DNA of 20,000 nt from an uncultured virus (IMG/VR IMGVR_UViG_3300032322_002129) (lineage: Duplodnaviria; Heunggongvirae; Uroviricota; Caudoviricetes): IMG/VR virus record IMGVR_UViG_3300032322_002129; one strand, written 5' to 3'. The notes beneath the pieces were generated by a model, which worked only from the letters and a program-made list of their open reading frames with translations, did not search any database and was not told where the DNA came from. Position 1 is the first letter of the stretch. The number at the start of each line of letters is the position of its first letter. Made by a program: the position numbers and the translations under genes. This document shows, in pieces, positions 3,610 to 19,537 of this stretch.

Positions 3610-3623
3610 AAAGGAGCTTATAT

Positions 3624-3848: not shown

Positions 3849-3862
3849 TAGTAATTTTTGGT

Positions 3863-3902: not shown

Positions 3903-3907
3903 TATTT

Positions 3908-3984
3908 AGTTTGCGCATAGTTTACAGATAGTTTACAGGCAGTTTGCAGGTAGTTTACGTATACTTTGTGCAATGTTTACCAAG
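3908..3984 (+). repeat. Tandem array of 11-bp degenerate direct repeats (5 good copies, 2 weak)
   Basis: AGTTTGCGCAT / AGTTTACAGAT / AGTTTACAGGC / AGTTTGCAGGT / AGTTTACGTAT / ACTTTGTGCAA / TGTTTACCAAG starting at 3908, 3919, 3930, 3941, 3952, 3963 and 3974. A TATACT hexamer lies at 3960-3965. Confidence 0.85.
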
Positions 3985-3992
3985 GATATATT

Positions 3993-4784: not shown

Positions 4785-4786
4785 CT

Positions 4787-7366
4787 ATGCCTATACGAAA
4801 AAAGCTAGATGAAAAGGATTTAGACCTTTTAGAAGTACTAGAAGATGAAGTGTGGTTAACTGAGTTTTTACGCAACACATCAGACGGTGAGTATAATCGT
4901 GCGCTTTGGCCAGCACAACCATGGAAGTATCGAGACTATCAAAAACAAATACTTACTGATAAATCAAAATACATTTCTCTTACTGGTGGGCGTGCTATTG
5001 GTAAGTGTGAGCCGGGTGAAGCAAAGATCCTTACCGTAGGGCGTGGATATATGATGTTGAAAGACCTGGTGAAAGAAACATCATTTCCCGTGTATGCGCT
5101 GGATCAATACTCAAACCTTGTTCAGCGTAGAGCAAGAGTTACACCAGATGATATGGCTCCAGTAAAAAAGATTTATACTCGTGCGGGGCATTTAATACAC
5201 GTTACAGCAGAACATCCAATCCTTACACCAGATGGATGGGTAAAAGCAGAAAACATTGATGTAGGATCGCTAGTTGGTGTATTGACACAAATACCCAACG
5301 ATATGATTAGTCAAACATTTGCCTGGCATGAATTACGATTTTTTGGATATATTTTACTAGATCCCCCATTGCGTGAAAGTACTGTTTTTGTGCCGAAGTA
5401 TAAAAAGATTGGTGAAGAGTTTAAGTATATTTGTTCTCTTTTACCAGTAGATGTATTTCCTCGTGAGAATGGGTTTGGTGTGCGTAGGGTTAAGGGTGGG
5501 TATTTTTCTACAATCCGCGCACTTTACAATGATGTAGGCTTTGATGATGACTACGTATTTTCCTTGCGTATGTCAAGCATGCCTGAACTATTGATGCTAG
5601 AGTGTAAAGATAATCTTAAAGTATTTCTTGAAGCACTGTTTGCTCAGTTTGCAGAGGTATCTGCGCGGGAGATTAGTATATTTACACGCTACGAATCACT
5701 TACCTTTGCACTACAAACAATGCTCTTGCGCTTTGGTATTGAATCACGCATTACTACAAAAGACGAACCAAATAGTTATAGCCTTGAAATACTTGATTAC
5801 GAAAATGTGTATGATTTCTGGAAAACATTTACATTACCCGGTGTATCTGTTGATCAACTAGAAGAGCCTGTACGTAAAGCACGAGTAAATGCACATCTTC
5901 GATATGATGAAGTGGTGTATGTGGATATGCCAATATATCCAGTACAAACATATGCTGTCCATGTGCGCGAAGATAATAACTATATCTCCAGTAACATCTA
6001 TGTACATAACACTGTAGTACTTGAAGATAAAATTATCTACGAGGTAGTAAACTATGAACGTGAGTTTCCTGTTACACCAGAGCAGGTACTTACCACAGCC
6101 AACCAGTCGCAGATGCAGCCATTGCTGTCAAAACTTATACAACGTTTTACTTCAAGCCCACTACTAAAACATTATTTACAGAACAATGTAAATAAACAAG
6201 ATGGTACGATGAGGTTTCCTGCACGAAGTAAACCATTCACGTTTTACTTTCGTATCGCAGGTAGTAAAGGCGAAAACAACGTCGTAGGGCTTCACGTACC
6301 AAAAGTGAAAATTGATGAAGCACAACTGTACCCACCAAATGCGTACACACAACTGCTTCCGATTATTAACTATTGGGAACCTAAAACACAGCTTCTTATT
6401 ACTGGAGTATCAAATGGTTTACGTAATTCTGTGTTGTATTTAGTAGATCAAAAAGATCCGAAGTTTAAGAAATATCGTATTCCCTCGCACAATAACCCAT
6501 TCTACTCACGAGAGCAGGATTTACAGAACTTACGTGACTGGGGCGGTGAGAATGATGATCGCTATGTTCAGCTTGTACTTGGTAGACACGGATCAGCAGC
6601 ATTTCAAATCCTTACCAGAGATGATTTTAAAGTAGAAAGTTTTCCATTTCATAATTATCGATACCAGAGTAATCAGAAGATGAAAGGTATTCATTATCAC
6701 GAAGTATTAGGAACACCAGCTATTCCAGAATCAATCCAGCTTGTCATGGCTATTGATACAGGATTTGTTGATCCTACCATTATTCAGCTTATTGGTATGG
6801 ATAAGTATCACATTTGGAGAACCTACTGTAGGTATCACCTAAATCGTATTGACTTTACTGAGCAGAGAAAGATTATTCATTGGTTAGCTACAGAATATAA
6901 TGTACAAACAATTGCGATGGATATTGGTGCTGGTGGTGGTGGTGCTGGTATTATGCACGCACTACTCCATGAGGACGAATATAAAAACGATAACTATAAC
7001 CAACGAATTGTACCAGTCATTTTTAATGAAAAGATTGTTGTAGGATTACGCGAATCTGGTGAGGAAGTAGCAGATGATGCAAAGTCACATGGTACAAAAG
7101 TACTAGTGACCGAAGTTCAATCAAGCCGATTAGTATTTAGTGATGTAGATCATGAGGGGATTTCACAACTTGAAAGAATATCGAAGCAAAAACTTAGTAC
7201 TGGAAAAGATCGTTATTTTGTACTATCCGATCGCGGAAGTGGTGCAGATTCAAATGATCACATTTATGCCAGTTATATTTGTTTTGGCATTGCAATTGAT
7301 CGTGGTTTAGTAAAGCCCGCGCAAGCTACACGAAAGCTACCAACAGTATCTGGAGTGTATACCTAA
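4787..7366 (+). CDS. terL: Terminase large subunit, intein-containing
   Basis: Adenine-binding YRDYQ, Walker A GGRAIGK|T split by the intein, Walker B VKIDEAQ, coupling-motif region ITGVSNG, RNase H-like nuclease AIDTGFVDPT...MDIGAGG...NDHIYAS. The spliced product would be 524 aa. Confidence 0.9.
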   Translation: MPIRKKLDEKDLDLLEVLEDEVWLTEFLRNTSDGEYNRALWPAQPWKYRDYQKQILTDKSKYISLTGGRAIGKCEPGEAKILTVGRGYMMLKDLVKETSFPVYALDQYSNLVQRRARVTPDDMAPVKKIYTRAGHLIHVTAEHPILTPDGWVKAENIDVGSLVGVLTQIPNDMISQTFAWHELRFFGYILLDPPLRESTVFVPKYKKIGEEFKYICSLLPVDVFPRENGFGVRRVKGGYFSTIRALYNDVGFDDDYVFSLRMSSMPELLMLECKDNLKVFLEALFAQFAEVSAREISIFTRYESLTFALQTMLLRFGIESRITTKDEPNSYSLEILDYENVYDFWKTFTLPGVSVDQLEEPVRKARVNAHLRYDEVVYVDMPIYPVQTYAVHVREDNNYISSNIYVHNTVVLEDKIIYEVVNYEREFPVTPEQVLTTANQSQMQPLLSKLIQRFTSSPLLKHYLQNNVNKQDGTMRFPARSKPFTFYFRIAGSKGENNVVGLHVPKVKIDEAQLYPPNAYTQLLPIINYWEPKTQLLITGVSNGLRNSVLYLVDQKDPKFKKYRIPSHNNPFYSREQDLQNLRDWGGENDDRYVQLVLGRHGSAAFQILTRDDFKVESFPFHNYRYQSNQKMKGIHYHEVLGTPAIPESIQLVMAIDTGFVDPTIIQLIGMDKYHIWRTYCRYHLNRIDFTEQRKIIHWLATEYNVQTIAMDIGAGGGGAGIMHALLHEDEYKNDNYNQRIVPVIFNEKIVVGLRESGEEVADDAKSHGTKVLVTEVQSSRLVFSDVDHEGISQLERISKQKLSTGKDRYFVLSDRGSGADSNDHIYASYICFGIAIDRGLVKPAQATRKLPTVSGVYT
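5006..6010 (+). mobile_element. Intein (335 aa) in the TerL Walker A motif, with degenerate LAGLIDADG domain
   Basis: Begins CEPGEAKILT (TGT 5006), block B HVTAEHPILTPDGW, ends TYAVHVREDNNYISSNIYVHN followed by Thr (AAC 6008-6010). The endonuclease motifs are eroded (FFGYILLDP, FLEALFAQFA). Confidence 0.92.
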
Positions 7367-7397
7367 ATGTGCGCGTACGAATAAAAGATTATGATAT

Positions 7398-8885
7398 ATG
7401 AATAATGATACACCAAAACGAGTAGCAAAGGCTTCATACTTTACCAGTTACCTTGCTACACAACCAATTTATACTCCTCCAGTAAATAAATCACTTATTT
7501 CTGGATACTATAATCCGTCAGTAAAGCTGTTTGACTATCACGAGCTTATTAAAGTATGTCGATGGTTTTACACGTTTGATCCTATTGCAGGAACCGTTAT
7601 TGAACGTATGGCTGATATGTCGGTAACAGAGATACGTAATCGCAGAAAGGGTAAGCGGAATACTGCACCAGTTGATGATACAACACTTGCATATTACAAT
7701 GCTATTGCAAAGCGTATTCGTCCACTGATTAAAGCCATGGCTCTTGAGTATTTTATCCATGGGCTTGCAGTACCAGATTATACATTTGAACGTGTGCGAG
7801 GTGATCTGCTGTCAGAACATCTTGGTAGGCGTCGTGTGTGGGCTCCTGCAAAGGCTTGGGTGCGTAACCCAGAGAATATTGTACTAGAGCGTAAACCTGC
7901 TGGATTGGATCGTGCAGTCTTTCTTAAAATCCCATCACAAGATATTTCCTTTGTAAAAAACAAAGGATACTATGAAGACGGGAACTACGATCCAGAAACA
8001 TATCAGAAACTTCTTCGAGAGTTTCCAGAATATGTACGTGCAATTGAAAGCGGAAAAACAACTATCCTACTTGAAAATGTACGCCCAATTCTACGTAAAA
8101 TTACTAGCTATAATGAATATCCTTCACCATTCCTCACAAAAGCCATTAAAGCACTTCAGCATAAAGAAGCTATTAAGCAAATGGACAGAAGCATTGCTAA
8201 TCGCGCAATTGAAGCATTGCGTCATGTAAAAGTTGGTGATAAGGATTTTCCTGCTGATGATGATGATATTACTTCTGCCCGCGCAGCACTAGAACAGAAC
8301 AGCAGTTCTAGTGAGCGGGTATATAACCTTATTACGCCACACACCTACGACATCCAATGGATTCTACCACCACTAGAAGCATTACTATCTCCAGTGAAGT
8401 ATGATGAACCTAATGCAGATATTTTCTTAGGATTAGGCTTCCCTCGTATTCTTACCGTAGGTGAAACATTACGCTCTAACTCTTCTGATAGTAAAATTGC
8501 TTCATTAGGCCCAAGAGCAACACTGGAAGATCTTCGAGACAGTCTTGTAACATGGCTTGAAGAATTGTACCAAGAGCTTGCAGAGCTTAATGGCTTTACC
8601 CGCATCCCAGAACCATACCTTACACCAATTCAAACAATGGACTATACTGCATTGGTGCAATTTGCGGTAAATGCCATGATCGCTGGTGGTATTAGTAAGA
8701 ATGATCTTGCACAGCTCTACGGAACAGATTATGATACGGTGCAATCACAGCTAGAGATTGAACAAAGTGGTATTACTCCAACACCACCAGATGCAAACAC
8801 AGATACAAATACTGCGGGAGATACAGAAAATGACCAACCAGATCCAGAACCAACAGACACCGAGACAAACATTCAAGAATCCTGA
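7398..8885 (+). CDS. Probable portal protein
   Basis: 495 aa directly after TerL. N-terminal CRWFYTFDPIAGTVIERMAD resembles portal N-termini; mostly helical, with an acidic low-complexity C-tail. The call is largely positional. Confidence 0.7.
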   Translation: MNNDTPKRVAKASYFTSYLATQPIYTPPVNKSLISGYYNPSVKLFDYHELIKVCRWFYTFDPIAGTVIERMADMSVTEIRNRRKGKRNTAPVDDTTLAYYNAIAKRIRPLIKAMALEYFIHGLAVPDYTFERVRGDLLSEHLGRRRVWAPAKAWVRNPENIVLERKPAGLDRAVFLKIPSQDISFVKNKGYYEDGNYDPETYQKLLREFPEYVRAIESGKTTILLENVRPILRKITSYNEYPSPFLTKAIKALQHKEAIKQMDRSIANRAIEALRHVKVGDKDFPADDDDITSARAALEQNSSSSERVYNLITPHTYDIQWILPPLEALLSPVKYDEPNADIFLGLGFPRILTVGETLRSNSSDSKIASLGPRATLEDLRDSLVTWLEELYQELAELNGFTRIPEPYLTPIQTMDYTALVQFAVNAMIAGGISKNDLAQLYGTDYDTVQSQLEIEQSGITPTPPDANTDTNTAGDTENDQPDPEPTDTETNIQES

Positions 8886-9618
8886 AATCTTGCATTTTCG
8901 TACTCCAGAAGTATTTGCTACATATTTACAAAATAGATCTGCACCAACATGGTTTACAAAGGTATGTATCCACCACACGGCTATTCCTACGGTAGTACAA
9001 TGGCGTGGGCTGTCTACTATGCAAAATATGTTGTACTATTACCGTAGGCTTGGGTGGAAAAGCTTTCCTCATATCTTTGTTGCTCCTGATGGTGTGTGGC
9101 AAATGAATAACGTGCTTTTACGTGGCACGCACGCAAATGCAGCAAATGTGTTCTCTATTGGAGTAGAAGTAGTAGGTAACTATGATACTGGAGTGTGGCA
9201 AGAACCTATCCGCACGTATGCTGTGGAAACTATTCAGTTACTTCTTCAATGGAGATCGTTAAACAATCAAGATATTGTATTTCATCGATCATACAATCCT
9301 TCAAAATCTTGCCCAGGGAGGGCTATTACATTTCCTTGGGTGCAAGAGCAGCTAAATAACACTACTTCTGAAAATCGTACCTACAAAGTAATTACCGATC
9401 ACGCTCGTATTCGTCAAGGACCAGCAACATCATACCCAATTGCAGGTAAGCTGATGAGCGGAGATATGTTTATCTCTTCAGCAGTGAAGGAAGATGAGAC
9501 AGGGATGCACATTGGTGGGAAGAATACATGGGCGCACATTACAAAAGCAATCAAAGCACCAAACAATGTGGATTCTCTTGGCTTTGTTCATACAAGCCTC
9601 CTTGAACAAATTGGGTAA
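8830..9618 (+). CDS. Endolysin: Zn-dependent N-acetylmuramoyl-L-alanine amidase (Amidase_2) with C-terminal SH3b-like domain
   Basis: CIHHTA, HIFV, HANAANVFSIGVEVVGNY, FHR...KSCPG; C-terminal RIRQGPATSYPI...WAHI...GFVHTSLL. ATG 8830 with GGAG SD is preferred over TTG 8758 and overlaps the portal 3' end by 56 nt. Confidence 0.88.
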   Translation: MTNQIQNQQTPRQTFKNPEILHFRTPEVFATYLQNRSAPTWFTKVCIHHTAIPTVVQWRGLSTMQNMLYYYRRLGWKSFPHIFVAPDGVWQMNNVLLRGTHANAANVFSIGVEVVGNYDTGVWQEPIRTYAVETIQLLLQWRSLNNQDIVFHRSYNPSKSCPGRAITFPWVQEQLNNTTSENRTYKVITDHARIRQGPATSYPIAGKLMSGDMFISSAVKEDETGMHIGGKNTWAHITKAIKAPNNVDSLGFVHTSLLEQIG

Positions 9619-9621
9619 ATT

Positions 9622-9966
9622 ATGACAGATCCTTCTGCCGTTCTTGCTGCTATACGTGATGTAGGGCTAGCAGCAGTAATCATCCTCCTTTCATTATGGG
9701 GGATTTGGAAGGTTATCATTCCGGCAATTATTGATCAGCAACAGCAACAGACTGACTTCTATGTAGCGGAGATTAAATCTTTGAGACAAGAAGCTCGCGA
9801 AGATAAACAGCGAATGTTTGAAGCGTTTAATCAAAACTCCGAAGTAAACAAAGCTCTACAAGCTGCGCTTAATAACATTAGCGCGCAAATAGTAGAACTC
9901 TCTCGTGATGTCGTAGCTCTACAAGAAAAAGTAGACAGTATTAGTAAGGAGCAAACCAATGTTTGA
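9622..9966 (+). CDS. Holin-like / lysis-associated membrane protein (1 TM plus coiled coil, BhlA/UviB-like architecture)
   Basis: Hydrophobic VGLAAVIILLSLWGIWKVII then a long heptad-rich helix; directly follows the amidase. Confidence 0.55.
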   Translation: MTDPSAVLAAIRDVGLAAVIILLSLWGIWKVIIPAIIDQQQQQTDFYVAEIKSLRQEAREDKQRMFEAFNQNSEVNKALQAALNNISAQIVELSRDVVALQEKVDSISKEQTNV

Positions 9967-10282
9967 TTTTTCTACCATGACCGCGCAAGATGTTGTTCTT
10001 GTCATTTCACCATTTCTCTCTGTTATTGCTACGTATCTTATCGCTCAAGAAAGCTGGTCAAAACCAGTAAAAGCAGCAGTAGCATTTATTATTTCAGCAC
10101 TCTTTGCAGCACTTGTAGCATACAGTCAAGGATCGCTGGTGGATAACTTCTGGGATAATTTCTTAGTTGTATATACTATTGCACAAGGTATCTACTGGTC
10201 TGTGTTTAAGGGTGTAGGTCTGGAAAAGTATCTGCCTAAGCAGCCTGTAGAGGCTTCAGAAAAGCAGCCACTTGACAGCTAA
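9959..10282 (+). CDS. Putative holin (about 3 TM segments)
   Basis: 107 aa, three hydrophobic segments, charged C-tail, within the lysis block; SD AAGGAG. Confidence 0.65.
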   Translation: MFDFSTMTAQDVVLVISPFLSVIATYLIAQESWSKPVKAAVAFIISALFAALVAYSQGSLVDNFWDNFLVVYTIAQGIYWSVFKGVGLEKYLPKQPVEASEKQPLDS

Positions 10283-10300
10283 GTAATGTTGTGGTATAGT
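10272..10300 (+). promoter_or_regulatory. Consensus sigma70/sigmaA promoter with extended -10
   Basis: TTGACA (10272-10277), 17 nt spacer, TGg-TATAGT (-10 at 10295-10300). Confidence 0.85.
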
Positions 10301-10325
10301 GGGTGTGTGAAATGCACACCCACTA
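10297..10325. repeat. Inverted repeat overlapping the -10 box and start site
   Basis: TAGTGGGTGTG-tgaaatg-CACACCCACTA, 11-bp perfect arms plus a T.G pair. Confidence 0.8.
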
Positions 10326-10339
10326 CAAAGGATGTGTGT

Positions 10340-11104
10340 ATGACAACGATTATTCATGATGACTGTGTGCGCGGGCTACAAACACTACCACCAAACAGTG
10401 TAGACGTAATCTTTATCGATCCACCATACAACACTGGGGTAACAGAAGATAAAACACCAAAATACTCGCGTAATGAAGATTATGTAAAAAAGAACTGGAA
10501 GAGCTTTCATGCAGACTGGGATGTTATCGATGATTATTATCAGTGGGCTAGAAGTTGGTTGAGTGAGAGTAAACGAGTACTAAAAGAACACGGATCAGTC
10601 TTTATTTGCGGTAGTTTTCATAACATTCCAGATGTTGCAATGGCATTACGTAGTTTGAACTGTTACACTATTCAATGGATCTCTTGGTGTATTCCAAATA
10701 GTTTTCCTAATTTGTCTATGACAAAGATGGTGAGTTCTAATCAGGTTTTAATTTGGGCGCGCGCAAACAGTAAACACTTCTACGACGCAGAAGCAGCAAA
10801 GCGGTACAATGACGGTAAAAACCTACGCGATTATTGGGTTATTCCAAACAATACTTCAGAAAATAAAGGAAAAGTTTGGTTACGACATCCAAGCAAAAAG
10901 CCTACAGAGCTGGTTCAACGAGCTATTGATATTGCATTACCAAAAGAAAACAACGTACACGTAGTAGACTTTTTTGCTGGTAGTGGAACGACAGGGTCAG
11001 TGTGTAAGCGTCTATCACAAATGTACAATATTGATATTAATTGTACACTGATTGAACGTGAAGAGCAATACGTTTCATGGATTACAGAAAGGATGCGCTC
11101 ATGA
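10340..11104 (+). CDS. DNA amino-methyltransferase, beta class (CcrM/DpnA-like)
   Basis: IFIDPPYN, ICGSFHNI, W...PN.FPN, NDGKNLRDYWVIP, HPSKKP, VVDFFAGSGTT. ATG 10340 with AAAGGA SD; the track start at 10286 lies upstream of the promoter's start site. Confidence 0.88.
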   Translation: MTTIIHDDCVRGLQTLPPNSVDVIFIDPPYNTGVTEDKTPKYSRNEDYVKKNWKSFHADWDVIDDYYQWARSWLSESKRVLKEHGSVFICGSFHNIPDVAMALRSLNCYTIQWISWCIPNSFPNLSMTKMVSSNQVLIWARANSKHFYDAEAAKRYNDGKNLRDYWVIPNNTSENKGKVWLRHPSKKPTELVQRAIDIALPKENNVHVVDFFAGSGTTGSVCKRLSQMYNIDINCTLIEREEQYVSWITERMRS

Positions 11105-12054
11105 CAAATACACTCACGCTTGGTATTGTTATTCCTACTGTTGGTTTACATAATGTAACACATGATTGTATTACGAGGCTTGTGGTTAATTTACTAAATC
11201 CAAAACAAACACAGATCATTATTGTAGACAATCTTTATAATGGTCAAAATCTATCAGCACTCGAAGAAGAGCTAAAGCAGTTTGCAGAAGGCAGTTGTAT
11301 TGTACGAAATACCAACAATCTAGGATATTGGGATAGTCTTATTGCTGGTATCAAACTTCTACACACCGATCTTGCATTGTGTATGCACAACGATGTGTAT
11401 ATTTATGAGCAGGATTTTGATCAGCGTATTATCAATGAGTTTCTTATTAACGATAAGTTAGGTATTGCTGGTTTCTTCGGGGGTAGGGGCTTGAGTATTG
11501 ATGGTGGTAGGGGTCATCCTGAGAGCAACATGGTTGGTAGGTATGATGGAACACACGGCAGTCTGCACGGGGCTATTTTAAAAGAATCACATCCAGCAGT
11601 AGTATTTGATTCTCTTGCAATGATCTTTCGGGTGAAGTATCTGTTGAGTGTTGATTATACTGACTTGCCCCCGCATCATTGGTGTGATCGTCTTATCTGC
11701 TTACGTATGATGAAAGCAGGGTTTAATCTCCTCACTATTGGTATTGAGTTTGATCATGGTGGATCATATACATCAAACGCAACATACAATGGTGAATCAT
11801 TGCTAGAGTCTTTCTCTCGTGAATGGTGTACGAGTAAAGGTTTATCGAGGCTTGAAAACTGGAACCATACGCTCTATATGTATGGTTTAAATATGTTCCA
11901 GCAAGAGTACCGTGCGTTTGTGGGAAATGATCAACCTATTTGGGTACGAAAGCATAGCTTTTACGATTGGAAGCATGTGTATTATCAACTGCATTGGTAT
12001 CAGGATATTGCAGATGGGATGATAACTGCGGATAAGCTAGATCGAAAGGATTAG
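11101..12054 (+). CDS. Glycosyltransferase, GT-A fold (family 2-like)
   Basis: LGIVIPT, IIIVDN, NTNNLGY, CMHNDV (DxD-equivalent), VVFDSL, HHWCDRLIC. ATG 11101 with AGAAAGGA SD; ATGA overlap with the MTase. Confidence 0.8.
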   Translation: MTNTLTLGIVIPTVGLHNVTHDCITRLVVNLLNPKQTQIIIVDNLYNGQNLSALEEELKQFAEGSCIVRNTNNLGYWDSLIAGIKLLHTDLALCMHNDVYIYEQDFDQRIINEFLINDKLGIAGFFGGRGLSIDGGRGHPESNMVGRYDGTHGSLHGAILKESHPAVVFDSLAMIFRVKYLLSVDYTDLPPHHWCDRLICLRMMKAGFNLLTIGIEFDHGGSYTSNATYNGESLLESFSREWCTSKGLSRLENWNHTLYMYGLNMFQQEYRAFVGNDQPIWVRKHSFYDWKHVYYQLHWYQDIADGMITADKLDRKD

Positions 12055-12056
12055 TT

Positions 12057-12602
12057 ATGAACAGTACTATGAGTAGTGTAACATTACAGGCATCTAGTGT
12101 AGAGACTATTGAAGACGCTCAAATGATGCGTGAGATTAGAAACAGTGTGCGCGAGTATATGACACGTGATACAGATAACATTACACCAGAACAACAATAT
12201 CAATGGTTCTATAGTATGTATACATCTAGTAAATATGATGCGTATTTATTTTATAGCGCGCACGGATGCTGTGTAGGTTATGGTATGCTTACATCTTCTG
12301 ATGATAAGGTATGGGGAACGCTAGCAGTAAAGAAAGAGTTTCAAAATCAAGGATATGGGACTGCTATTTATCAATACCTTACTAGAGTATGTGCAGAGTT
12401 TAAAGAGCAGTATGAAGATCATTTTTATAAGGGCGAAGTGTATCACTATTTTTCAAAACTGTATGAAGATCTGTGGATTGAAATCTATGCAGATAATGCG
12501 GAAAGTCTGCGAGCAGCACAAAAGGCAGGATTTGAAACAGTACATGTGGGCGACAAGGTAGTTACGCTTGTTCATAGAGGAAGGAACGCAGATGAATCCT
12601 GA
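12057..12602 (+). CDS. GNAT-family N-acetyltransferase (PseH-like N-terminus)
   Basis: REIRN.VREYM...ITPEQQYQWF, VGYG, acetyl-CoA motif A LAVKKEFQNQGYGT, motif B EIYADNAESLRAAQKAGF. Confidence 0.82.
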   Translation: MNSTMSSVTLQASSVETIEDAQMMREIRNSVREYMTRDTDNITPEQQYQWFYSMYTSSKYDAYLFYSAHGCCVGYGMLTSSDDKVWGTLAVKKEFQNQGYGTAIYQYLTRVCAEFKEQYEDHFYKGEVYHYFSKLYEDLWIEIYADNAESLRAAQKAGFETVHVGDKVVTLVHRGRNADES

Positions 12603-13686
12603 ACGCACTATTCCACTATTTAAAGTATTTATGTCAAATCAAGCAAAGGCTAATGTACAAGAGGTATTAAATAGTGGGTACATTGGTCAAGGGCCATATG
12701 TAGAAAAGTTTGAAGATCTATTTGCTAATTATGTAAAGTCAGATAAACCTATTATTTCACTCAACTCTGCTACATCTGGTTTGCAGCTTGCTTGTTATAT
12801 GATTGGCTTGCGTGAAGGCGATGAGGTAATCACTACACCAATTACGTGTACTGCTACACAGACTGGTATTGTGAGTAGTAAGGCTACGATTGTATGGGGT
12901 GATGTTGATCCGCGCACAGGTTTGCTTGACGTCGATGATGTGCGGGCTAAAATGACAAAACACACAAAAGCCATCATTGCCACCAATTGGGGTGGTAGAA
13001 AGCCTAACTATGTTGAACTAAAAAAGTTAGGTGTACCAGTTATTGAAGATGCAGCCCATGGGCCATATGAAGTAACAGAGAATAGTGGTGATTACATCGT
13101 ATGGTCAACACAAGCTATCAAGTTTCTTACTACTGGAGATGGTGGGATGTTGTACTGCTCAGATCCAGAACGTGCACGCTTACTACGTTGGTATGGGCTT
13201 GATCGTCGATCCTCTAAAGATTTCCGCTGTGCACAGGATATTCAAGAAGCAGGGTTTAAGTATCATATGAATGATATTGCTGCTGCTATTGGATGTGGGA
13301 ATATTAGGTATTTAAAGTCTTTAATTAACGCGCACAAACGACATGCGCGTGCATATGAAAATTTGTTGACTGTAGACAGACCGTCATATGATCCAGAATG
13401 TCCATACTGGATTTACACCATTTTCTGTAAAAATCCTACGTTGTTAAGTGAACAACTAAAGAACTTTGGTATTGATTCCAGCCCAGTGCATGCGCGAAAT
13501 GACAAACACACTGCATTTCGTCGTATTGCAAAATATAGTGATAATACTGGTGTAGTAGAGTATGACAGCACACAGCTAAACATCCCTGTTGGTTGGTGGC
13601 TAGACAGGAATGACACGGGGATTGTAGACGATCTCGCATACATTGCTGATATAGTAAATGCACTAGTCGAAAGGATGGGCTTATGA
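12592..13686 (+). CDS. DegT/DnrJ/EryC1/StrS-family PLP-dependent NDP-sugar aminotransferase
   Basis: SGYIGQGPYVEKFE, NSATSGL, GDEVITTPIT, IEDAAH, WSTQAIKFLTTGDGG (PLP Lys), GFKYHMNDIAAAIG. ATG 12592 after GAGGAAGGA. Confidence 0.92.
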   Translation: MNPERTIPLFKVFMSNQAKANVQEVLNSGYIGQGPYVEKFEDLFANYVKSDKPIISLNSATSGLQLACYMIGLREGDEVITTPITCTATQTGIVSSKATIVWGDVDPRTGLLDVDDVRAKMTKHTKAIIATNWGGRKPNYVELKKLGVPVIEDAAHGPYEVTENSGDYIVWSTQAIKFLTTGDGGMLYCSDPERARLLRWYGLDRRSSKDFRCAQDIQEAGFKYHMNDIAAAIGCGNIRYLKSLINAHKRHARAYENLLTVDRPSYDPECPYWIYTIFCKNPTLLSEQLKNFGIDSSPVHARNDKHTAFRRIAKYSDNTGVVEYDSTQLNIPVGWWLDRNDTGIVDDLAYIADIVNALVERMGL

Positions 13687-14441
13687 AAAAATTAGTACTA
13701 TTTGCAGTACCAACATACAAAAAGCTTCAGATGTGCGCGGATCTTGTACAATCAGTTCCAGACGAAACAGATATTGCTATCTACAATCGGTTAATTATTG
13801 ATAACAGTGGTGGTGAAGTAAAGCGTCAATTTCCTGATCTTGAGTCACGCTGTATGATTGCTACTCCAGTACATAATATTGGTGTTGCGCGATCTTTTAA
13901 TCTTGCTCTCCATATTGGAAGCGTGTATGAGTATGATTATGTGATTATCAGTAATGATGATCTTGTATTACGTCCAGATACGCTTGATACGCTTGTAGCA
14001 GCAGCAATTGAGCAAGACAGTGATCACAAGAAGCTGATCTTTTGTACTAGTGGTGGTGGGTTAAATGCGTTTTCTCTTTTTCTTGCACCCCCCACAGAGC
14101 TGATTAAGCGTGTTGGTTTCTTTGAGGTAGCGTATTTTAGCTATCTAGAAGATAACGATATGCACTATCGACTACAGCTCTACGGAGCTGATCTCGTACG
14201 TGTACCTGGATGTGATGTAGAATCGCATGAAGTTAGTGCTACTATTAAAGAGTTCATTGGTGCAGAAGTTGAACACTTCCACAGATATCGTGCAAAGGGT
14301 ACACAGGAGTATCTACGTAAGTGGGGAGGTGGCCCACATGCAGAGGTCTATCAGACACCATATGACAGTGGACTTGACAGTACAACCTGGCATCGTGTAT
14401 ACTATTGCAAGGAAGATCCTATCAACCTTCCAGATTACTAA
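13683..14441 (+). CDS. Glycosyltransferase, GT-A fold (family 2-like)
   Basis: FAVPTY, LIIDNS, HNIGVARSFN, ISNDDL, VGFFE..YFSYLEDNDMHYRL, YLRKWGG. ATGA overlap with the aminotransferase. Confidence 0.85.
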   Translation: MKKLVLFAVPTYKKLQMCADLVQSVPDETDIAIYNRLIIDNSGGEVKRQFPDLESRCMIATPVHNIGVARSFNLALHIGSVYEYDYVIISNDDLVLRPDTLDTLVAAAIEQDSDHKKLIFCTSGGGLNAFSLFLAPPTELIKRVGFFEVAYFSYLEDNDMHYRLQLYGADLVRVPGCDVESHEVSATIKEFIGAEVEHFHRYRAKGTQEYLRKWGGGPHAEVYQTPYDSGLDSTTWHRVYYCKEDPINLPDY

Positions 14442-14450
14442 GAGGTATTT

Positions 14451-14771
14451 ATGAAAAACTCACGTGGTGCTACTATCAATCGACTCATCGTATCAGAAGC
14501 AGCATTAGTAACTAATAAAATTATTATTACTGCTGTCACTGGAAAAAAGATTTATATTCATCAAATGTATCTTGACACAGCAATTAATAATAATACTATT
14601 ATTTTTAAATCAAATGGTACGCCCATTGCTCCAAGTTTTTACTTTGCAAACAAAGGTGATGCGCTTATTCTACCTTTAGCTGATGAAGTTGGTTGGTTTG
14701 TTGGAGATACAAATCTAAGCATCAGTTGTGATGGTGGTTTTACTGGTTTCATTATGTATACGCAGGAATAG
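14451..14771 (+). CDS. Small beta-strand-rich hypothetical protein, possibly virion-associated
   Basis: GAGG SD; 106 aa rich in I/T/G/N, pattern AVTGKKIYI...IIFKS...; the structural role is an inference. Confidence 0.55.
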   Translation: MKNSRGATINRLIVSEAALVTNKIIITAVTGKKIYIHQMYLDTAINNNTIIFKSNGTPIAPSFYFANKGDALILPLADEVGWFVGDTNLSISCDGGFTGFIMYTQE

Positions 14772-14802
14772 TGTGCGCGCACAATAAAAGAAAGGATACG
14801 TT

Positions 14803-15369
14803 ATGATTGACCCCACATACAAAAAGCAGGTAGAGGATATTATTAACTCTCAGAGATTTGAAACACTATTATCAGCCCAAATGAATGATTCTGATTGGCC
14901 ACGGTTTATGGTATTTGAAAGTCACTTCAGTCATCCACAATACGATGATTGGAATAGTGGTAGTGATGGTTTAAGCTACATGGATAAATCTCCAGCACGC
15001 ACTGAGTGGATGTGGGACACAGCTCTTCAAGCATTCTCGTACTGTAGTAGATCGTTTAAAAGTAATGAAGACCTTATTCGCTATACTCTTGAAATGCACA
15101 ATGCAAAAAATAGCGATTATGGAAATCAAAAAAGCCCATGGACAAACATTTTTGCATGTGAACGTGTGATGGGGCTTCCAGCAGAGATAGGTATTATGGT
15201 GCGTATGCTTGATAAGGTGAGTCGATACCGACAGCTCACGAAAGCAAACTACACACCACGGGTAGAAGAGTCATTGCTTGATACCGTATTTGATATTGCA
15301 TCGTACGCATGTATGCTCCTCTGTATTGAGCAGCTACCAGAATCAGAACGTACAGCATTGGTGTGGTAG
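14803..15369 (+). CDS. DUF1599 / nucleotide-modification-associated domain 1 (Nmad1)-like all-alpha protein with N-terminal extension
   Basis: C-half AKNSDYG...N...GIMVRMLDKVSR...EESLLDTVFDIASY matches the KN.DYG / R..DK..R / ES..DT..D...Y pattern of this family. Confidence 0.75.
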   Translation: MIDPTYKKQVEDIINSQRFETLLSAQMNDSDWPRFMVFESHFSHPQYDDWNSGSDGLSYMDKSPARTEWMWDTALQAFSYCSRSFKSNEDLIRYTLEMHNAKNSDYGNQKSPWTNIFACERVMGLPAEIGIMVRMLDKVSRYRQLTKANYTPRVEESLLDTVFDIASYACMLLCIEQLPESERTALVW

Positions 15370-15402
15370 TTTCTTAGGTAGTATTAGGGTAAAATTGGGG
15401 TA

Positions 15403-15431
15403 TTGACAACGCTTGAAAAGTATGCTATACT
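15403..15431 (+). promoter_or_regulatory. Consensus sigma70/sigmaA promoter with extended -10
   Basis: TTGACA (15403-15408), 17 nt spacer, TGc-TATACT (-10 at 15426-15431), in an intergenic gap. Confidence 0.88.
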
Positions 15432-15455
15432 GTTACCGTGATGTAGCAGTATAGC
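15424..15455. repeat. Inverted repeat containing the -10 box
   Basis: GCTATACTGTTAC-cgtgat-GTAGCAGTATAGC, 13-bp arms with one T.G pair. Confidence 0.8.
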
Positions 15456-15482
15456 CTACACGATAGGTAGAAAGTAGTAAGT

Positions 15483-15695
15483 GTGGCAAAGCATCGAACA
15501 TTAAAAGAAGAAACAGAGTTTACTGTAGGTAGTAAGGTGCGGGTTACTGATAAAAACACAGAACATTACCAACAAGTAGGAGAAGTAGTACGTTTAGGAT
15601 CTGCTGGTGAGGTATTGTATATTATGGTGTTGTTTCCTGGTTATATCACACCGCGCACATTTGTGCATCAGCAGATAGAGTTAGAAAGGGTGTAA
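15483..15695 (+). CDS. Small KOW/SH3-like beta-barrel protein
   Basis: GTG start; FTVGSKVRVTD...QVGEVVRLG...IMVLF pattern. Confidence 0.55.
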   Translation: MAKHRTLKEETEFTVGSKVRVTDKNTEHYQQVGEVVRLGSAGEVLYIMVLFPGYITPRTFVHQQIELERV

Positions 15696-15696
15696 T

Positions 15697-16248
15697 ATGG
15701 ATTATTATGGTGTTCGCACTATTGATCTTGCCCACGCAGTAACAAGGTTTTTTAATTTACACTACACACTACCTGATGAAGAGGTAAAAGCAGTAAGTAC
15801 CGTAAATCACCTACAGGCTTTGTGGGAGCGTAAGCGTGGTGGTTGGCTTCGGATCAAGCACGATGTGCTATCATACACAGCACGATCAGGGTTTCTGAGC
15901 TTTGTAGTTACTCCAAGTGAGTTTACTATCAAGCTCTATAAAATACCATACTTCCCACAGCCAAAAGGAGCAATTCCTATTGTACATATTACCTATTATG
16001 CTCCTACATATGCTCAAGGACGTACCACAAGTACCAGAAGTGTTTCTGTGTACATTGATAAATCAATCGATCTTTTATCGCAGAATCTAGTAAGTGTTGC
16101 TCCTCTTTATACTATTGATAATCCGTTAGGTTTTAATGGTTTTCTGGAAAACCTTTTAGAAGAAACATCTGATGGAATTATTCGTACAGATTGGATGACG
16201 AGGAGTGCTGCTCGGGATCTTTTATACGCTATGCGCACATATCGATAA
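15697..16248 (+). CDS. Hypothetical protein
   Basis: 183-aa ORF, SD AGAAAGGG, packed between neighbours; no motif recognised. Confidence 0.7.
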   Translation: MDYYGVRTIDLAHAVTRFFNLHYTLPDEEVKAVSTVNHLQALWERKRGGWLRIKHDVLSYTARSGFLSFVVTPSEFTIKLYKIPYFPQPKGAIPIVHITYYAPTYAQGRTTSTRSVSVYIDKSIDLLSQNLVSVAPLYTIDNPLGFNGFLENLLEETSDGIIRTDWMTRSAARDLLYAMRTYR

Positions 16249-16262
16249 TATAGGGGGTAATT

Positions 16263-17027
16263 ATGTTCTTTGGGCCAATCGTAACCAACATGGGTAGTAG
16301 GGCTTCGTTCATTGATACGCTTGCACGATGGGATAAGCAGAACTTTACCAGTGTGAAGGTGATTACTGGATGGGGGCTGTCTGGTGGTTGGAGTTCTAAT
16401 GATCGCGCACAAATCCTTTCGTTTACATCTAATCCTATCGTGCGTACCGTAGCTGGAGATCCTTCTTCACGTCGTCATCCTCTACCCCATCCTGGTATTA
16501 TTATCGATGAGTTACGACCGTGGCTTGACATGAAGTTCAACCTTATGGTAGAATTAGGTAATGAGCCAAACATCAAGCCTGTAGAAGATCGCTTTATCTG
16601 GGAGTATCGTTATTTTCTGGATCAGAGCATTGATCTTGTGCGGCGAATGTATCCACACGCACACATCATTGCACCAGCACTTATTGTCAACAACACGGCA
16701 CAGCGATGGTTTGATGTGTGTAAAAATGTATTTGAGAAGTGTGACAGTGTAGGTATTCATGCCTATGAGCATATCAGTTTTTCACCACTGGATAACATTC
16801 CCCGCACAAATCAACTAGCTACGCTGAATACAATGTATGAGGAAGTTAAAAAGCCAAAAGTCATGACAGAATATGGTATCAACGATTCAAAGGTATCAAA
16901 AGTGGTAAAACTGCGTGAGTATATGGAGATGCTGCCAAAGCTCAAGGCTTTGGGATATATTGGAGCTACATTTTATCACATTAATGTAAAAGAGGATATT
17001 GATCCGCAATATCATATTCCAGTATAG
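16263..17027 (+). CDS. Glycoside hydrolase, clan GH-A-like TIM barrel
   Basis: Acid/base VELGNEPN, VGIHAYE and nucleophile VMTEYG in canonical order; no signal peptide evident. Confidence 0.75.
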   Translation: MFFGPIVTNMGSRASFIDTLARWDKQNFTSVKVITGWGLSGGWSSNDRAQILSFTSNPIVRTVAGDPSSRRHPLPHPGIIIDELRPWLDMKFNLMVELGNEPNIKPVEDRFIWEYRYFLDQSIDLVRRMYPHAHIIAPALIVNNTAQRWFDVCKNVFEKCDSVGIHAYEHISFSPLDNIPRTNQLATLNTMYEEVKKPKVMTEYGINDSKVSKVVKLREYMEMLPKLKALGYIGATFYHINVKEDIDPQYHIPV

Positions 17028-17053
17028 TGTAGGATAGTAGAAAGGATGTTCGT

Positions 17054-17263
17054 ATGTCACAACCAGTATATATCGTGCAAGTAAAGTTTACTAGTCCACA
17101 AAAAGCAGAGCTATTTGCACGATGGATGTCACAACACGCGGTGCATGATTATGCACAATATTCACAAATGAGCGGTCAGGATACTGGTGTTTCGATGTTT
17201 GTGCGCGAACGACAAGATAGAGATCTACCACACATTACTTTCATCAACGCAATGGGAGTATAG
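17054..17263 (+). CDS. Hypothetical protein
   Basis: 69 aa, SD AGAAAGGA. Confidence 0.7.
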   Translation: MSQPVYIVQVKFTSPQKAELFARWMSQHAVHDYAQYSQMSGQDTGVSMFVRERQDRDLPHITFINAMGV

Positions 17264-17275
17264 AAAGGATACATT

Positions 17276-17509
17276 ATGTATACTACTGATTTTGACAAAC
17301 TACTTCGTCTGTACGAAATTGCGCTAGATTCTCAAAATCCAGCAGACGCACAGAGAGTTTTCAATCTTGTGCGCCCCATCGCAGAACGCATGATTTATGA
17401 GTTGCTAGAAGTTTCCCTTGTTGCACGAAATCTTGTTGATGGTAAGCGTGATGTAACTACAGAGGATCTTATTTCTGCTGTACATCATGCTCGTAATGTG
17501 GTAGTATAA
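17276..17509 (+). CDS. Hypothetical helical protein
   Basis: 77 aa, SD AGAAAGGA. Confidence 0.7.
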   Translation: MYTTDFDKLLRLYEIALDSQNPADAQRVFNLVRPIAERMIYELLEVSLVARNLVDGKRDVTTEDLISAVHHARNVVV

Positions 17510-17529
17510 TTAGTTAGAAAGGCGCTCAC

Positions 17530-17976
17530 ATGAACGCACCACGAGCAGATAAAGGAGCTTCACTTACTAAAATCGTAGCAATTGTTGTTTGGCTCTTCGG
17601 AACAATTATGACGTTTAATTTTATGAACCAGACAACTTCTGGATCATGGGAGTTCATCCAACTTGCTGCAATCTCGTTTGGTATTCAGCTCGTACTTACT
17701 TTAGGGCAGAGTCCAATTTGGACTGGATCAACAAAAACGTGGCAAGTTAGCGCTATGAGCTTATTTTGTCTTATCAGTGATGTGCTGATTAACTTTGGTG
17801 GTGCATTATCAGTGATGGCGCAAGTAGATGCCTCTGGAAGTATTCAGGCATTTTCCAGCACATTCTTTGGGACATCAGCTGATTTCCCAATGTGGGTCAA
17901 AGGGATGCTTGCACTTATTGTCAGTATTGCTATTGCAGGACTTCCAGAATATCTCTGGCGTCTGGATATGAAGTAA
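17530..17976 (+). CDS. Integral membrane protein (about 4 TM)
   Basis: Four hydrophobic segments; SD AGAAAGG. Confidence 0.7.
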   Translation: MNAPRADKGASLTKIVAIVVWLFGTIMTFNFMNQTTSGSWEFIQLAAISFGIQLVLTLGQSPIWTGSTKTWQVSAMSLFCLISDVLINFGGALSVMAQVDASGSIQAFSSTFFGTSADFPMWVKGMLALIVSIAIAGLPEYLWRLDMK

Positions 17977-17986
17977 GGAGTTTCGT

Positions 17987-18544
17987 ATGGGATATGATCA
18001 CTGGATGACGCCACCAGATGAGTTGGAGCTTGCTCGGAGTATCATGGGCAGCATTACGTTAGATCCCGCAAGCAACGCGGTAGCACAGCAGTATGTACGT
18101 GCAGAACAGTATGCTGTGCTACCAGAGGAATATGATGGAAGTCCAGGTCAGGTTGTTGATGGGTTGCAGATCGCTTGGTCTGGTAATGTTTGGCTTAATC
18201 CTCCATACAGTAAACCAGTAGCAGACTTTGCAAAGAAAGCAGCAAAGGAACTACCAAACGTTACCAGTATGATGATCCTCGTTAATTCACAAACTGATGC
18301 AGCGTGGTATCATTTACTGATGGAGAAAATGTATTACCTGTGTCTCTATCGAGGTAGAATTAAGTTCTGGAAGGTATTTGACGGGGCTGCACATCAGCGC
18401 TGGATTAGTACTACTACCAGTAAAATGACAAACAGTCCTAGATATACCAATAGTGTATTCTTCCACAGCAAGGATGATGCAGCATTGAAGAGATTTGCGC
18501 AGGTATATGCAAGGAAGGGTAAAGTGTTAGTGCCTTTATATTAG
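17987..18544 (+). CDS. Phage DNA N6-adenine methyltransferase (Dam-like, phage T1/HP1 type)
   Basis: DHWMTP, ITLDPAS, DGL..AWSGNVWLNPPYS, LVNSQTDAAWY, GRIKF. Confidence 0.85.
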   Translation: MGYDHWMTPPDELELARSIMGSITLDPASNAVAQQYVRAEQYAVLPEEYDGSPGQVVDGLQIAWSGNVWLNPPYSKPVADFAKKAAKELPNVTSMMILVNSQTDAAWYHLLMEKMYYLCLYRGRIKFWKVFDGAAHQRWISTTTSKMTNSPRYTNSVFFHSKDDAALKRFAQVYARKGKVLVPLY

Positions 18545-18563
18545 CTTACCAGAAAGCAAACCA

Positions 18564-18594
18564 GTGTGCGCGGTGTTATAGTCGCCGCGCACAC
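18564..18594. repeat. Intergenic stem-loop built from two inverted copies of the TGTGCGCG motif
   Basis: GTGTGCGCGG-tgttatagtcg-CCGCGCACAC, perfect 10-bp stem; no U-tract. Confidence 0.75.
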
Positions 18595-18614
18595 CACAGA
18601 AAGGAAGGAAAAGG

Positions 18615-18806
18615 ATGCGGACACACTATCTTGTAAAAGATCTTCGACAAGCATGTCGGGAAAGACTGGGAATGGTTACGAATGGTCAAGTGTTGCTCGG
18701 TGAAGTACAGTTTAAAGTTCTGTGGGATGACAACAAGCATGAGTGGGTAGCTGCCAAGTATGTAGCAGAGGATGAAGACGATCAGGATGAGCCTTATAAG
18801 GGCTAG
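18615..18806 (+). CDS. Small hypothetical protein with acidic tail
   Basis: 63 aa after purine-rich AGAAAGGAAGGAAAAGG. Confidence 0.55.
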   Translation: MRTHYLVKDLRQACRERLGMVTNGQVLLGEVQFKVLWDDNKHEWVAAKYVAEDEDDQDEPYKG

Positions 18807-18818
18807 AAAGCAGGTAAT

Positions 18819-19502
18819 ATGGTAAAATATGTAGACTGCGCTGGTGTGCGCGAAATGGTATACATCTCAAAAAACGACATCCATCCAGCAATGGCAGAAG
18901 CAATTAGCCAATATTATAATCAACCAGTAGCAGTAGGAGTAGATATTGAAACAACAGGCTTAGATCCTCGCTATGATCGCATCTGTACGATTCAGGTTTC
19001 ATTACGATATGTGGGAACAAACGTCATCCAGCTAGATCCAGGAGCATTTCCAAAAAACCTGATAAACTATCTCACAGATAGCAATGTACATAAGATCTTT
19101 CACTACGCTATGTTTGATGTAGGATTTCTTTTGTATACGTATAAGCATATGCTTCGAAGTGTTAAATGTACGCGCACAGCAGCATCTATTGTCGATCCTA
19201 CACGACAAAAGTTTTTCTATCATGGAAAGCCAAGTCTTAGCCTTGCAGCACTGGTAGATCACTATTTTCAAGATACATTGAATAAAAAGCTCGCAGTAAG
19301 TGATTGGTCTAATCCCGATCTTACAGAAGAGCAGCTTGCGTATGCTGCAAAGGATTCATACTATCTCACGGATCTCTACTATCGATTGACAGAAGAGATG
19401 AATGATTTTGAGTATGACATGTATCTTGCTGCTTGTGAATGGCTTCCCTATAAGGTGTATGCGTTACAGAGCTTTCAACCAGATCACTTTAGTCGTGATT
19501 AG
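18819..19502 (+). CDS. Stand-alone DEDDy 3'-5' exonuclease (PolA proofreading / RNase D-like)
   Basis: ExoI VDIETTGLDP, ExoII FHYAMFDV, SLAALV, SDWS..DLTEEQLAYAAKD (ExoIII Y...D). Confidence 0.88.
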   Translation: MVKYVDCAGVREMVYISKNDIHPAMAEAISQYYNQPVAVGVDIETTGLDPRYDRICTIQVSLRYVGTNVIQLDPGAFPKNLINYLTDSNVHKIFHYAMFDVGFLLYTYKHMLRSVKCTRTAASIVDPTRQKFFYHGKPSLSLAALVDHYFQDTLNKKLAVSDWSNPDLTEEQLAYAAKDSYYLTDLYYRLTEEMNDFEYDMYLAACEWLPYKVYALQSFQPDHFSRD

Positions 19503-19537
19503 ATAGCCGTGACTAAAGTGTGCGCGGAGGGAGTATT

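Follow-up and report, generated by a model that had tools for sequence, protein, structure and literature searches.

A seven-gene phage operon with two glycosyltransferases and predicted amino-sugar enzymes, a possible cassette for virion glycosylation

What does a phage decorate with sugar enzymes that are transcribed together with a DNA methyltransferase (MTase)? This question is raised by an operon in a 20,000-nucleotide stretch of the uncultured virus record IMGVR_UViG_3300032322_002129. This whole stretch, here called the window, corresponds to bases 1-20000, read on the reverse strand, of a viral record 24,912 bases long (G000; CheckV completeness, 20%). The seven genes encode an MTase, a glycosyltransferase (GT) termed GT2a, a GNAT acyltransferase, a DegT aminotransferase, a second glycosyltransferase (GT2b), a small beta protein (beta106) and a DUF1599-like protein. 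An earlier note on this DNA had preferred hypermodification of phage DNA as the function of the operon and had named glycosylation of virion proteins or of the host envelope as the alternative. The analysis described here favored the virion, and we give a probability of roughly 0.5 to the reading that the operon is a phage glycan cassette which glycosylates the virion with a 4-acylamino sugar derived from a 4-keto sugar of the host. The genes that recur around the GT families point to virion proteins, and not to DNA, as the target.

We infer the identity of the sugar, the order of the steps and the acceptor from what was observed, namely the genes present, their operon structure, the families to which they belong and their recurrent genomic associations. 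The DegT protein would aminate a nucleoside diphosphate (NDP)-4-keto sugar, likely a dTDP- or UDP-4-keto-6-deoxyhexose or a 4-keto-pentose, supplied by the host or by the unsequenced part of the phage genome, and the GNAT protein would N-acylate the new amine. GT2a and GT2b, with a GT-B enzyme encoded at a distance, would then add the N-acyl-amino sugar, along with further sugars, to a phage-specific macromolecule, most likely a virion protein (capsid, tail or decoration), resulting in a variable glycan coat on the particle. The co-transcribed MTase would be an ordinary anti-restriction methylase, and the beta106 and DUF1599-like genes would be accessory genes.

Two related sequences were used alongside G000. 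The first, an 85,328-base viral contig (G001; 63% complete) with 90 to 97% identity across all of G000, stood in for the parts of the genome outside G000, leaving 37% unseen. The second, a divergent syntenic relative (L015/L016), had protein identities of about 38 to 79%: portal, 79%; MTase, 62%; DegT, 58%; GT2b, 54%; GT2a, 43%; DUF1599-like, 43%; GNAT, 38 to 40%; beta106, 38%. A blastn search with the operon against 50,697 phage records gave no match.

The proposal of a seven-gene operon between two promoters was borne out. All seven open reading frames (ORFs) were present on the plus strand, with ATGA overlaps at 11101 and 13683, a 2-nucleotide gap at 12055-12056 and an 11-nucleotide overlap at 12592-12602. 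The upstream sigma-70-type promoter (TTGACA-17-TATAGT with a TG-extended −10 element; 10272..10300, plus strand) overlaps the stop codon of a holin-like gene, and the downstream promoter (TTGACA-17-TATACT; 15403..15431, plus strand) starts the next transcription unit. Each matched 11 of 12 consensus positions and both were conserved, the former at position 68623 of G001 and 2384 of L015 and the latter at 74507 of G001 and 4212 of L016. Sites with at least 11 of 12 matches numbered four on the plus strand of the window and zero on the minus strand; dinucleotide shuffles yielded 0.40 such sites per strand, and none of 300 shuffles reached four. An internal promoter-like site (TTGACA-18-TATACT, an 11/12 match; 14374..14403, plus strand) lies in the 3′ end of GT2b, 5′ of the beta106 gene, and was kept in G001 (73487) and not in L016. 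A 9-bp inverted repeat (GTGGGTGTG / CACACCCAC; 10299..10323, plus strand), located where the −10 element and the transcription start lie, may serve as an operator or form a hairpin at the 5′ end. The spacer between promoter and MTase is variable: in G001 a gene for a 244-residue PAPS-reductase-like protein (phrog_424; 68701-69435) is inserted just after the inverted repeat (at about 10326 of the window), a second PAPS-reductase-like gene being present at 52337-53110, while L015 carries a tRNA-Ile(TAT) at 2590-2664. The gene order of the operon was retained in L015 and L016. Elsewhere in G001, bases 1-15000 contain on the minus strand about 20 perfect or 11/12 TTGACA-17-TATAAT promoters, each preceding a small ORF; these bases form a dense region of early genes transcribed by a host sigma-70-type polymerase.

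The DegT/DnrJ/EryC1 gene (12592..13686, plus strand) encodes a sugar aminotransferase of the pyridoxal phosphate (PLP)-dependent type (PF01041, 177.2 bits against a cutoff of 19.8). The PLP Schiff-base lysine of the DegT family lies in an S-x-(H/Q)-x-x-K motif; Lys177 of the phage protein lies within STQAIK, a motif of this type, and the lysine was present in 13 of 13 full-length homologues (one truncated row excluded). The nearest solved relatives were PDB 4xau/4zwv (1.5e-52), which we take to be AtmS13, CalS13 (1.3e-43) and ArnB (4e-28), together with TlmJ, all of them presumably C4 aminotransferases of NDP-4-keto sugars, and the phage enzyme probably acts at C4. None of the NCBIfam equivalog cutoffs was reached (PseC, 145.3 versus 423.5 bits; ArnB, 116.6 versus 631; WecE, 58.5 versus 434.9). 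The GNAT protein (12057..12602, plus strand; PF00583, 34.8 bits against a cutoff of 20.7) has a QNQGYG acyl-CoA motif and is presumed to N-acylate the amino sugar. Its earlier description as PseH-like held only in part, a weak PseH match of 25.6 bits being found but the equivalog cutoff of 93.1 not being reached, and a PDB sequence search detected nothing significant. A GNAT gene accompanies DegT in L015/16, L022, L026, L065, L088, L090 and L114. Profile scans of the window detected no NDP-sugar dehydratase and no base-activating enzyme, in agreement with the earlier note. No SDR dehydratase was detected in the window or in G001, and hence either the host or the unseen 37% of the genome would have to supply the 4-keto sugar; homologous DegT genes in other lineages adjoin SDR dehydratase genes. 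The proposed chemistry, an N-acyl-amino sugar transferred by two GTs, is thus well supported by the Schiff-base lysine, the C4-aminotransferase relatives, the soluble GTs and the recurrence of the cassette.

GT2a (11101..12054, plus strand; PF00535, 30.6 bits against a cutoff of 23.3) and GT2b (13683..14441, plus strand; phrog_29879, "galactosyl transferase," 9e-21) are GT-A glycosyltransferases with the motifs DN, MHNDV, GGRGHPEGN, HHxxDR and FDHGG in the former and NDD, YxEDNDxHxR and KWGGxP in the latter. Both are soluble, with no transmembrane segment and no hydropathy window above 1.6, and their isoelectric points are 5.8 and 5.2, versus about 8.5 to 9.0 for the three MTases of the window. 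GT2b itself had no Pfam match; members of its family, which is widespread in phages, matched PF00535 (L011, 57.4 bits; L021, 48.2 bits). The homologues of GT2a (n = 49) were all on metagenome-type or viral contigs, no relatives were found in a pattern scan of 185,579 GTDB species genomes, and tblastn against the phage records gave 0 matches; in the PDB its profile best matched GT2 enzymes of the polysaccharide or cell-wall kind, the matches being confined to the N-terminal 90 residues. The GT2b profile detected at least 131 relatives in viral contigs, and homologues were present in two isolates, Pontimonas phage phiPsal1, the single record matched by tblastn, and Synechococcus phage S-CBS4 (gp15), while a PDB sequence search detected nothing significant. 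The third enzyme, GT-B (phrog_2170), is encoded in G001 about 40 kb upstream of the operon, flanked by a primase gene on one side and on the other by a block of large genes, most of them unannotated; this block holds the sole recognized neck or tail-completion gene and is taken to be a virion-structure block. GT-B is homologous to the GT1s of L012, L013, L023 and L025 and to the GT1 of phiPsal1, and tblastn matched 23 phage records.

The neighborhood of GT2b was surveyed in 80 of the 131 viral-contig relatives, giving 79 loci besides G001, within ±10 kb of the gene. A total of 1,636 ORFs were called and clustered, and the 105 clusters present in at least three loci were annotated. A head or packaging marker (terminase, portal, capsid, protease or MuF) was present in 50/79 loci, a second GT of any kind in 54/79 (GT-B in 30/79) and a sugar-tailoring enzyme of any kind in 47/79. 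SDR dehydratases/epimerases were found at 21 of the 79 loci, FkbM methyltransferases at 14, C-methyltransferases at 12, DegT at 11, the phrog_1485 (DUF1599-like) protein at 11, GNAT at 3 and ThyX at 3; no ThyA-like, TET or C5-methyltransferase (C5-MT) family occurred among the annotated clusters.

GT2b lies next to or a few genes from head genes in modules of gp23 type, SU10 type and the phage's own type, and GT2 cassettes adjoin terminase, portal or capsid genes in at least five head-gene types or contexts. In the gp23 type, the major capsid protein (MCP) gene is directly followed by GT-B and GT2b (MCP-GT-B-GT2b-FkbM), to which L090 adds DegT-x-GNAT-GT2a. The SU10 type has GT2a-SDR-DegT-SDR...GT2b-GT-B..portal-MuF-protease-MCP, and the own type has [sugar genes]-GT2b-TerL-portal-..-MCP-..-GT-B, TerL being the large terminase. 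Among isolates, the order is MCP-GT1-methyltransferase (MT)-GT2b-neck in phiPsal1 and portal-x-GT-B-GT2b(gp15)-MT...MCP in S-CBS4, and in Tetrasphaera phage TJE1 sugar-nucleotide genes, an MT and a GT-B precede TerL. Homologues of GT2a and GT2b together follow TerL in L011 and L021, with RGP-like and other GT2 genes. GT4, DegT, GT2a, GNAT and GT2b occur together in L022 and L026, with GT2a before DegT in L026, and L012, L013, L023 and L025 have the order GroEL-GT2a-FkbM-MT-GT2b-(dehydratase)-GT1-TerS-TerL. The last four are soil-type phage contigs in which a GroEL-like chaperonin gene stands immediately 5′ of the cassette. Synteny of the cassette across phages, which the earlier note had proposed to examine, was thus found in the form of recurring GT2a, GT2b and GT-B genes with exchanged tailoring genes (DegT/GNAT, dehydratases, FkbM and C-methyltransferases). 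In closer relatives (MazG-RNR-TerL(intein)-portal-lysis-..., RNR being ribonucleotide reductase), GT2b alone occupies the operon locus, indicating that the locus is variable and was expanded here by the four-gene amino-sugar module.

Glycosylation of virion proteins, formerly the alternative, is therefore the better-supported reading through the association of the GT families with head genes. It is also supported by the absence of a flippase or polymerase, by the lack of transmembrane segments in the GTs and their acidity, by the restriction of the GT2a family to metagenome and viral contigs and by the position of TerL and portal 3 to 6 kb upstream of the cassette in the window. Several points weigh against it. 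In the window the cassette follows lysis genes and is not embedded among capsid genes, and its sigma-70-type promoter does not mark the operon as late. No head marker was present in 29 of the 79 loci, which are not independent, many being near-identical or from few lineages, and annotation excluded clusters present in fewer than three loci, singleton ORFs among them. One broad lineage has the cassette between a recombination module and NMAD1-DUF7246-ferritin-like-TerL, in some members beside a dNMP kinase, a position equally compatible with a nucleotide or DNA role. Mycobacterium phages were not among the listed tblastn matches of GT2a, GT2b and GT-B, so that no homology to the experimentally characterized virion GTs was detected. 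The choice of a virion protein as the most likely acceptor is drawn from genomic context.

The other three genes of the operon were analyzed in the same manner. The MTase (10340..11104, plus strand) is a CcrM-like beta-class N6/N4 DNA amino-methyltransferase (PF01555, 121.9 bits against a cutoff of 26.7) which scored 158.7 bits with the CcrM equivalog NF050803 and did not reach its cutoff of 830. Its start is most likely the ATG at 10340, which has an AAAGGA ribosome-binding site, the start in the ORF list (10286) falling inside the promoter. Five amino-MTases (four N6_N4 and one Dam-like) are present in 25 kb, three in the window (1841-2671, 10340-11104 and 17987-18544) and two in the flank (L002, 1843-2658 and 2648-3361); hence, an MTase beside the cassette is no specific bracket.

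The last gene (14803..15369, plus strand) encodes an all-helical protein (predicted local distance difference test [pLDDT] of the model, 74) that is best described as DUF1599-like. The earlier description as Nmad1-like was supported by a likeness to phrog_1485 (8e-13) and not by PF07659, with which the score of 21.9 bits (E = 2.2e-4) missed the cutoff of 25. The conserved core spans residues ∼95 to 175, the N-terminal half being lineage specific. Core matches included Methylophilales phage Melnitz (tblastn, 2e-6; annotated "nucleotide modification associated domain"), Lactobacillus phage LfeInf, Streptococcus phage Javan53 and others, in loci with recombination or replication neighbors and no glycosyl genes nearby. 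The core also aligned with the GT2b-linked phrog_1485 proteins (hhalign probability, 88.9; E = 2.4e-6). The linkage between DUF1599 and GTs is hence partly real, as the core is homologous to phrog_1485 proteins encoded 3′ of GT2b in several other lineages, but the domain also occurs in phages without glycosyl genes; the linkage may stem from an accessory role in nucleotide handling or from shared synteny. A word-indexed homologue search detected two close relatives only, and nothing significant was detected by PDB sequence search or Foldseek. In the VIA comparison the top rows were dimeric dUTPases with Z scores of 6.0 and 5.6, below the helical background, so that a fold of the all-alpha NTP-pyrophosphatase-like kind is only a lead from the predicted model.

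The beta106 protein (106 residues; 14451..14771, plus strand) was predicted to be a jelly-roll beta-sandwich (pLDDT, 79.6) with an invariant C-terminal TQE, in keeping with its earlier description as a small beta protein, and had no family match. Foldseek found nothing at E ≤ 1e-3, and the VIA-wide structure comparison gave a best Z score of 8.4 (Ena1B), with no match above the stated background. Neighbors with Z scores of 6 to 8.4, within that background, were Ena spore-appendage subunits, nucleoplasmin, a phage cement protein, turret/baseplate domains and carbohydrate-binding modules. From the predicted model, the protein is a candidate decoration protein, glycan-binding protein or acceptor. 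A cupin or sugar isomerase assignment found no support in the fold comparison. Its homologues were restricted to two close relatives in a word-indexed search, tblastn against the phage records gave no match, and a hidden Markov model (HMM) of beta106 matched 0 of the 1,636 ORFs neighboring GT2b in the 79 loci. A HMMER search gave nine matches, of which the long ones were repeat-rich adhesin-, B-repeat- or tail-spike-like proteins and were set aside as compositional.

Attachment of an N-acyl-amino sugar to a modified base, protecting phage DNA against restriction or CRISPR, was the function preferred previously; we consider it improbable, as the adjacent MTase is one of five, searches of 85 kb of a near-identical relative and of four cassette-bearing genomes at least 90% complete detected no enzyme that puts a hydroxyl on a base, and the GT families keep company with head genes. 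Known phage GT-A/GT-B enzymes do put hexose, N-acetylhexosamine (HexNAc) and heptose on 5-hydroxymethylcytosine (5hmC), according to the parts consulted of bioRxiv 10.1101/2023.12.21.572611. Co-transcription of the cassette with a DNA MTase, and in G001 also with a PAPS-reductase-like PP-loop protein, would suit such a role, as would the DUF1599/phrog_1485 gene found 3′ of GT2b here and in 11/79 other loci, the dNMP kinase or MazG near some relatives and the 37% of the G001 genome that is unseen. However, no ThyA-like hydroxymethylase, TET/JBP or C5-MTase was detected in G000 (24.9 kb) or in the 85 kb of G001, which has ThyX and dCMP deaminase, indicative of a canonical dTMP supply. The genome search for hydroxymethylases and TET/JBP suggested by the earlier note was thus negative within the 63% covered, although the TET search matched no control genome either and that part of the negative is weak. 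ThyA-family or TET matches were found in 0/4 cassette-bearing viral genomes at least 90% complete (3/4 had a C5-MTase), and one of 10 other GT2b-cassette records had a gene of the ThyA family, separated from the cassette by more than 45 kb. Moreover, all five MTases are amino-MTases, which create no hydroxyl acceptor, both GTs are acidic, DUF1599-like domains occur in phages lacking glyco genes, and the phage records, which presumably include known DNA-glycosylating phages, had no match to GT2a and only phiPsal1 for GT2b. It is very unlikely that the DNA carries an N-acyl-4-amino sugar through acceptor chemistry requiring neither a ThyA-like nor a TET enzyme; the PP-loop protein of the relative's operon together with the DUF1599-like protein is a possibility for that route. 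N-acyl-4-amino sugars on DNA were not described in the portions of the literature surveyed. Adjacency of a methyltransferase or of DUF1599 is, accordingly, weak evidence for DNA hypermodification.

The acceptor could instead be a surface polymer of the host (teichoic acid, lipopolysaccharide/O-antigen, S-layer or pilin), modified from the cytoplasmic side so as to block superinfection or re-adsorption, for which prophage-encoded soluble GT-A enzymes such as TarP provide an analogy. The soluble GT-A enzymes, the host-type promoter and the location beside lysis genes would fit, as would the superinfection-immunity gene (PF14373) directly 5′ of the GT2a homologue in L011 and the resemblance of the N-terminal 90 residues of GT2a to polysaccharide and cell-wall enzymes. 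We regard this as unlikely, as there is no flippase, undecaprenyl-phosphate transferase or membrane partner, the GT2a family was absent from bacterial genomes in the pattern scan, the cassette recurs beside head genes in unrelated phage types and the phage is large and apparently lytic. A separate proposal, toward which we lean, is that only GT2a-GNAT-DegT-GT2b form a functional module and that the other three of the seven genes (MTase, beta106 and DUF1599-like) are unrelated passengers in a shared transcript. The four-gene module occurs outside this lineage without MTase or beta106 in L022, L026, L065 and L090, relatives of architecture A hold only GT2b at the locus, the beta106 HMM found no match among the neighboring ORFs, and the inserts between promoter and MTase differ between G001 and L015. 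The ATGA coupling of MTase and GT2a and the gene order kept in L015 and L016 argue for a single unit. Passenger genes are compatible with virion glycosylation and refine rather than replace it.

The remainder of the window, in which the credible genes are on the plus strand throughout and the GC content is 0.38 to 0.45, was annotated with Pfam and PHROG. The C-terminal part of the RNR large subunit with a LAGLIDADG intein (69-1760) is followed by an N6/N4 MTase (1841-2671), GMP reductase (2668-3609), TerL with an intein (PF14890 + LAGLIDADG_3; 4787-7366) and portal (7398-8885); an Amidase_2 endolysin and two small membrane proteins then precede the operon. The 4.9 kb outside the window contain two further N6/N4 MTases and the RNR N terminus. 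In G001, RNR (56774-59760) consists of two ORFs split by a free-standing LAGLIDADG_2 endonuclease gene, so that these close relatives differ in the interrupting selfish element. GMP reductase lies directly between GT2b and the phrog_1485 gene in L077, L086, L088 and L089, followed by DUF7246, ferritin-like and terminase genes, and is a recurring auxiliary gene of these phages; a scan of GTDB genomes with it gave no relatives. With the TTG start given in the ORF list, the amidase ORF would share 128 bases (8758-8885) with the portal gene; the true start is probably later, as the Amidase_2 domain begins only at residue 68. With portal, the best tblastn matches were only 24 to 28% identical and belonged to Bacillus and Microcystis phages. 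No integrase was found among 102 scanned ORFs of G001, from which we judge this large phage to be apparently lytic. A second transcription unit 3′ of the operon includes a Dam-like MTase (17987-18544) and a 3′-5′ exonuclease. Just 3′ of the operon, this unit encodes a 254-residue protein (p254; 16263-17027; 50% identity in L016) with subthreshold matches to glycoside-hydrolase TIM-barrel families (PF11790, 19.7 bits; GH5, 16.2 bits) and nothing significant in a PDB sequence search.

If glycosylation of the virion is the function of this operon, then such glycosylation is no peculiarity of actinobacteriophages, and a phage-specific GT trio (GT2a, GT2b and GT-B) with freely exchanged tailoring genes would equip many uncultured lineages with a variable coat of glycans, in parallel to bacterial O-antigen loci. 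Such a coat would be relevant to the immunogenicity, stability and adsorption of phages and to their arms races with hosts, and loci of the GT2b type are a source of uncharacterized soluble GTs and amino-sugar enzymes.

The nearest enzymatic precedents are the bacterial NDP-amino-sugar enzymes WecE/WecD (dTDP-Fuc4NAc), PseC/PseH and ArnB. A DegT-family C4 aminotransferase followed by a GNAT on an NDP-4-keto sugar is common to WecE/WecD, PseC/PseH and, by prediction, the phage operon; in contrast to the bacterial systems, the phage scores are far below the equivalog cutoffs, no dehydratase is present and the product would go to phage-specific soluble GTs rather than a lipid-linked pathway. Glycosylation of giant-virus fibrils and capsids uses virus-made amino sugars such as viosamine and bacillosamine, and a virus-encoded DegT-type aminotransferase, an N-acyltransferase and GTs decorate the virion, as proposed for the phage; those viruses, however, are a eukaryotic-virus lineage encoding their own dehydratases, and the likeness is one of gene kinds alone. 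Phage DNA glycosylation clusters (T4 alpha/beta-GT, C5-MT + 5mYOX + GT and ThyA-like + GT) likewise combine GT-A/GT-B enzymes with NDP-sugar tailoring. In the parts consulted of bioRxiv 10.1101/2023.12.21.572611 and PMC13326640, the DNA glycans are hexose, HexNAc, heptose and arabinose on 5hmC or 5-hydroxycytosine (5hoC), the acceptors being made by C5-MT + 5mYOX or a ThyA-like enzyme, and the main texts mention aminotransferase and acetyltransferase 0 times. As far as those clusters are described there, the present phage differs in that no ThyA-like enzyme or C5-MT + TET pair was found in G000 and G001 and no ThyA/TET in four relatives at least 90% complete. The closest parallel in gene arrangement is with actinobacteriophage virion glycosylation cassettes (mycobacteriophage clusters O and F), cited in the consulted parts of PMC11600133, PMC12619734 and PMC13313380. 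In cluster O mycobacteriophages, an O-methyltransferase gene lies upstream of three GTs in tandem, by which capsid and tail-tube proteins are modified (PMC11600133, citing Freeman et al. 2023, Cell Host Microbe). As represented in these excerpts, the mycobacteriophage GTs differ in that tblastn found no homology to those described here, for which tailoring would be by amination and N-acylation rather than O-methylation. Shared with those cassettes, on the same partial accounts, are phage-encoded tandem GTs and sugar-tailoring enzymes beside or within virion genes, and the relatives L012, L013, L023 and L025 have the same make-up of GTs and O-methyltransferases as the actinobacteriophages.

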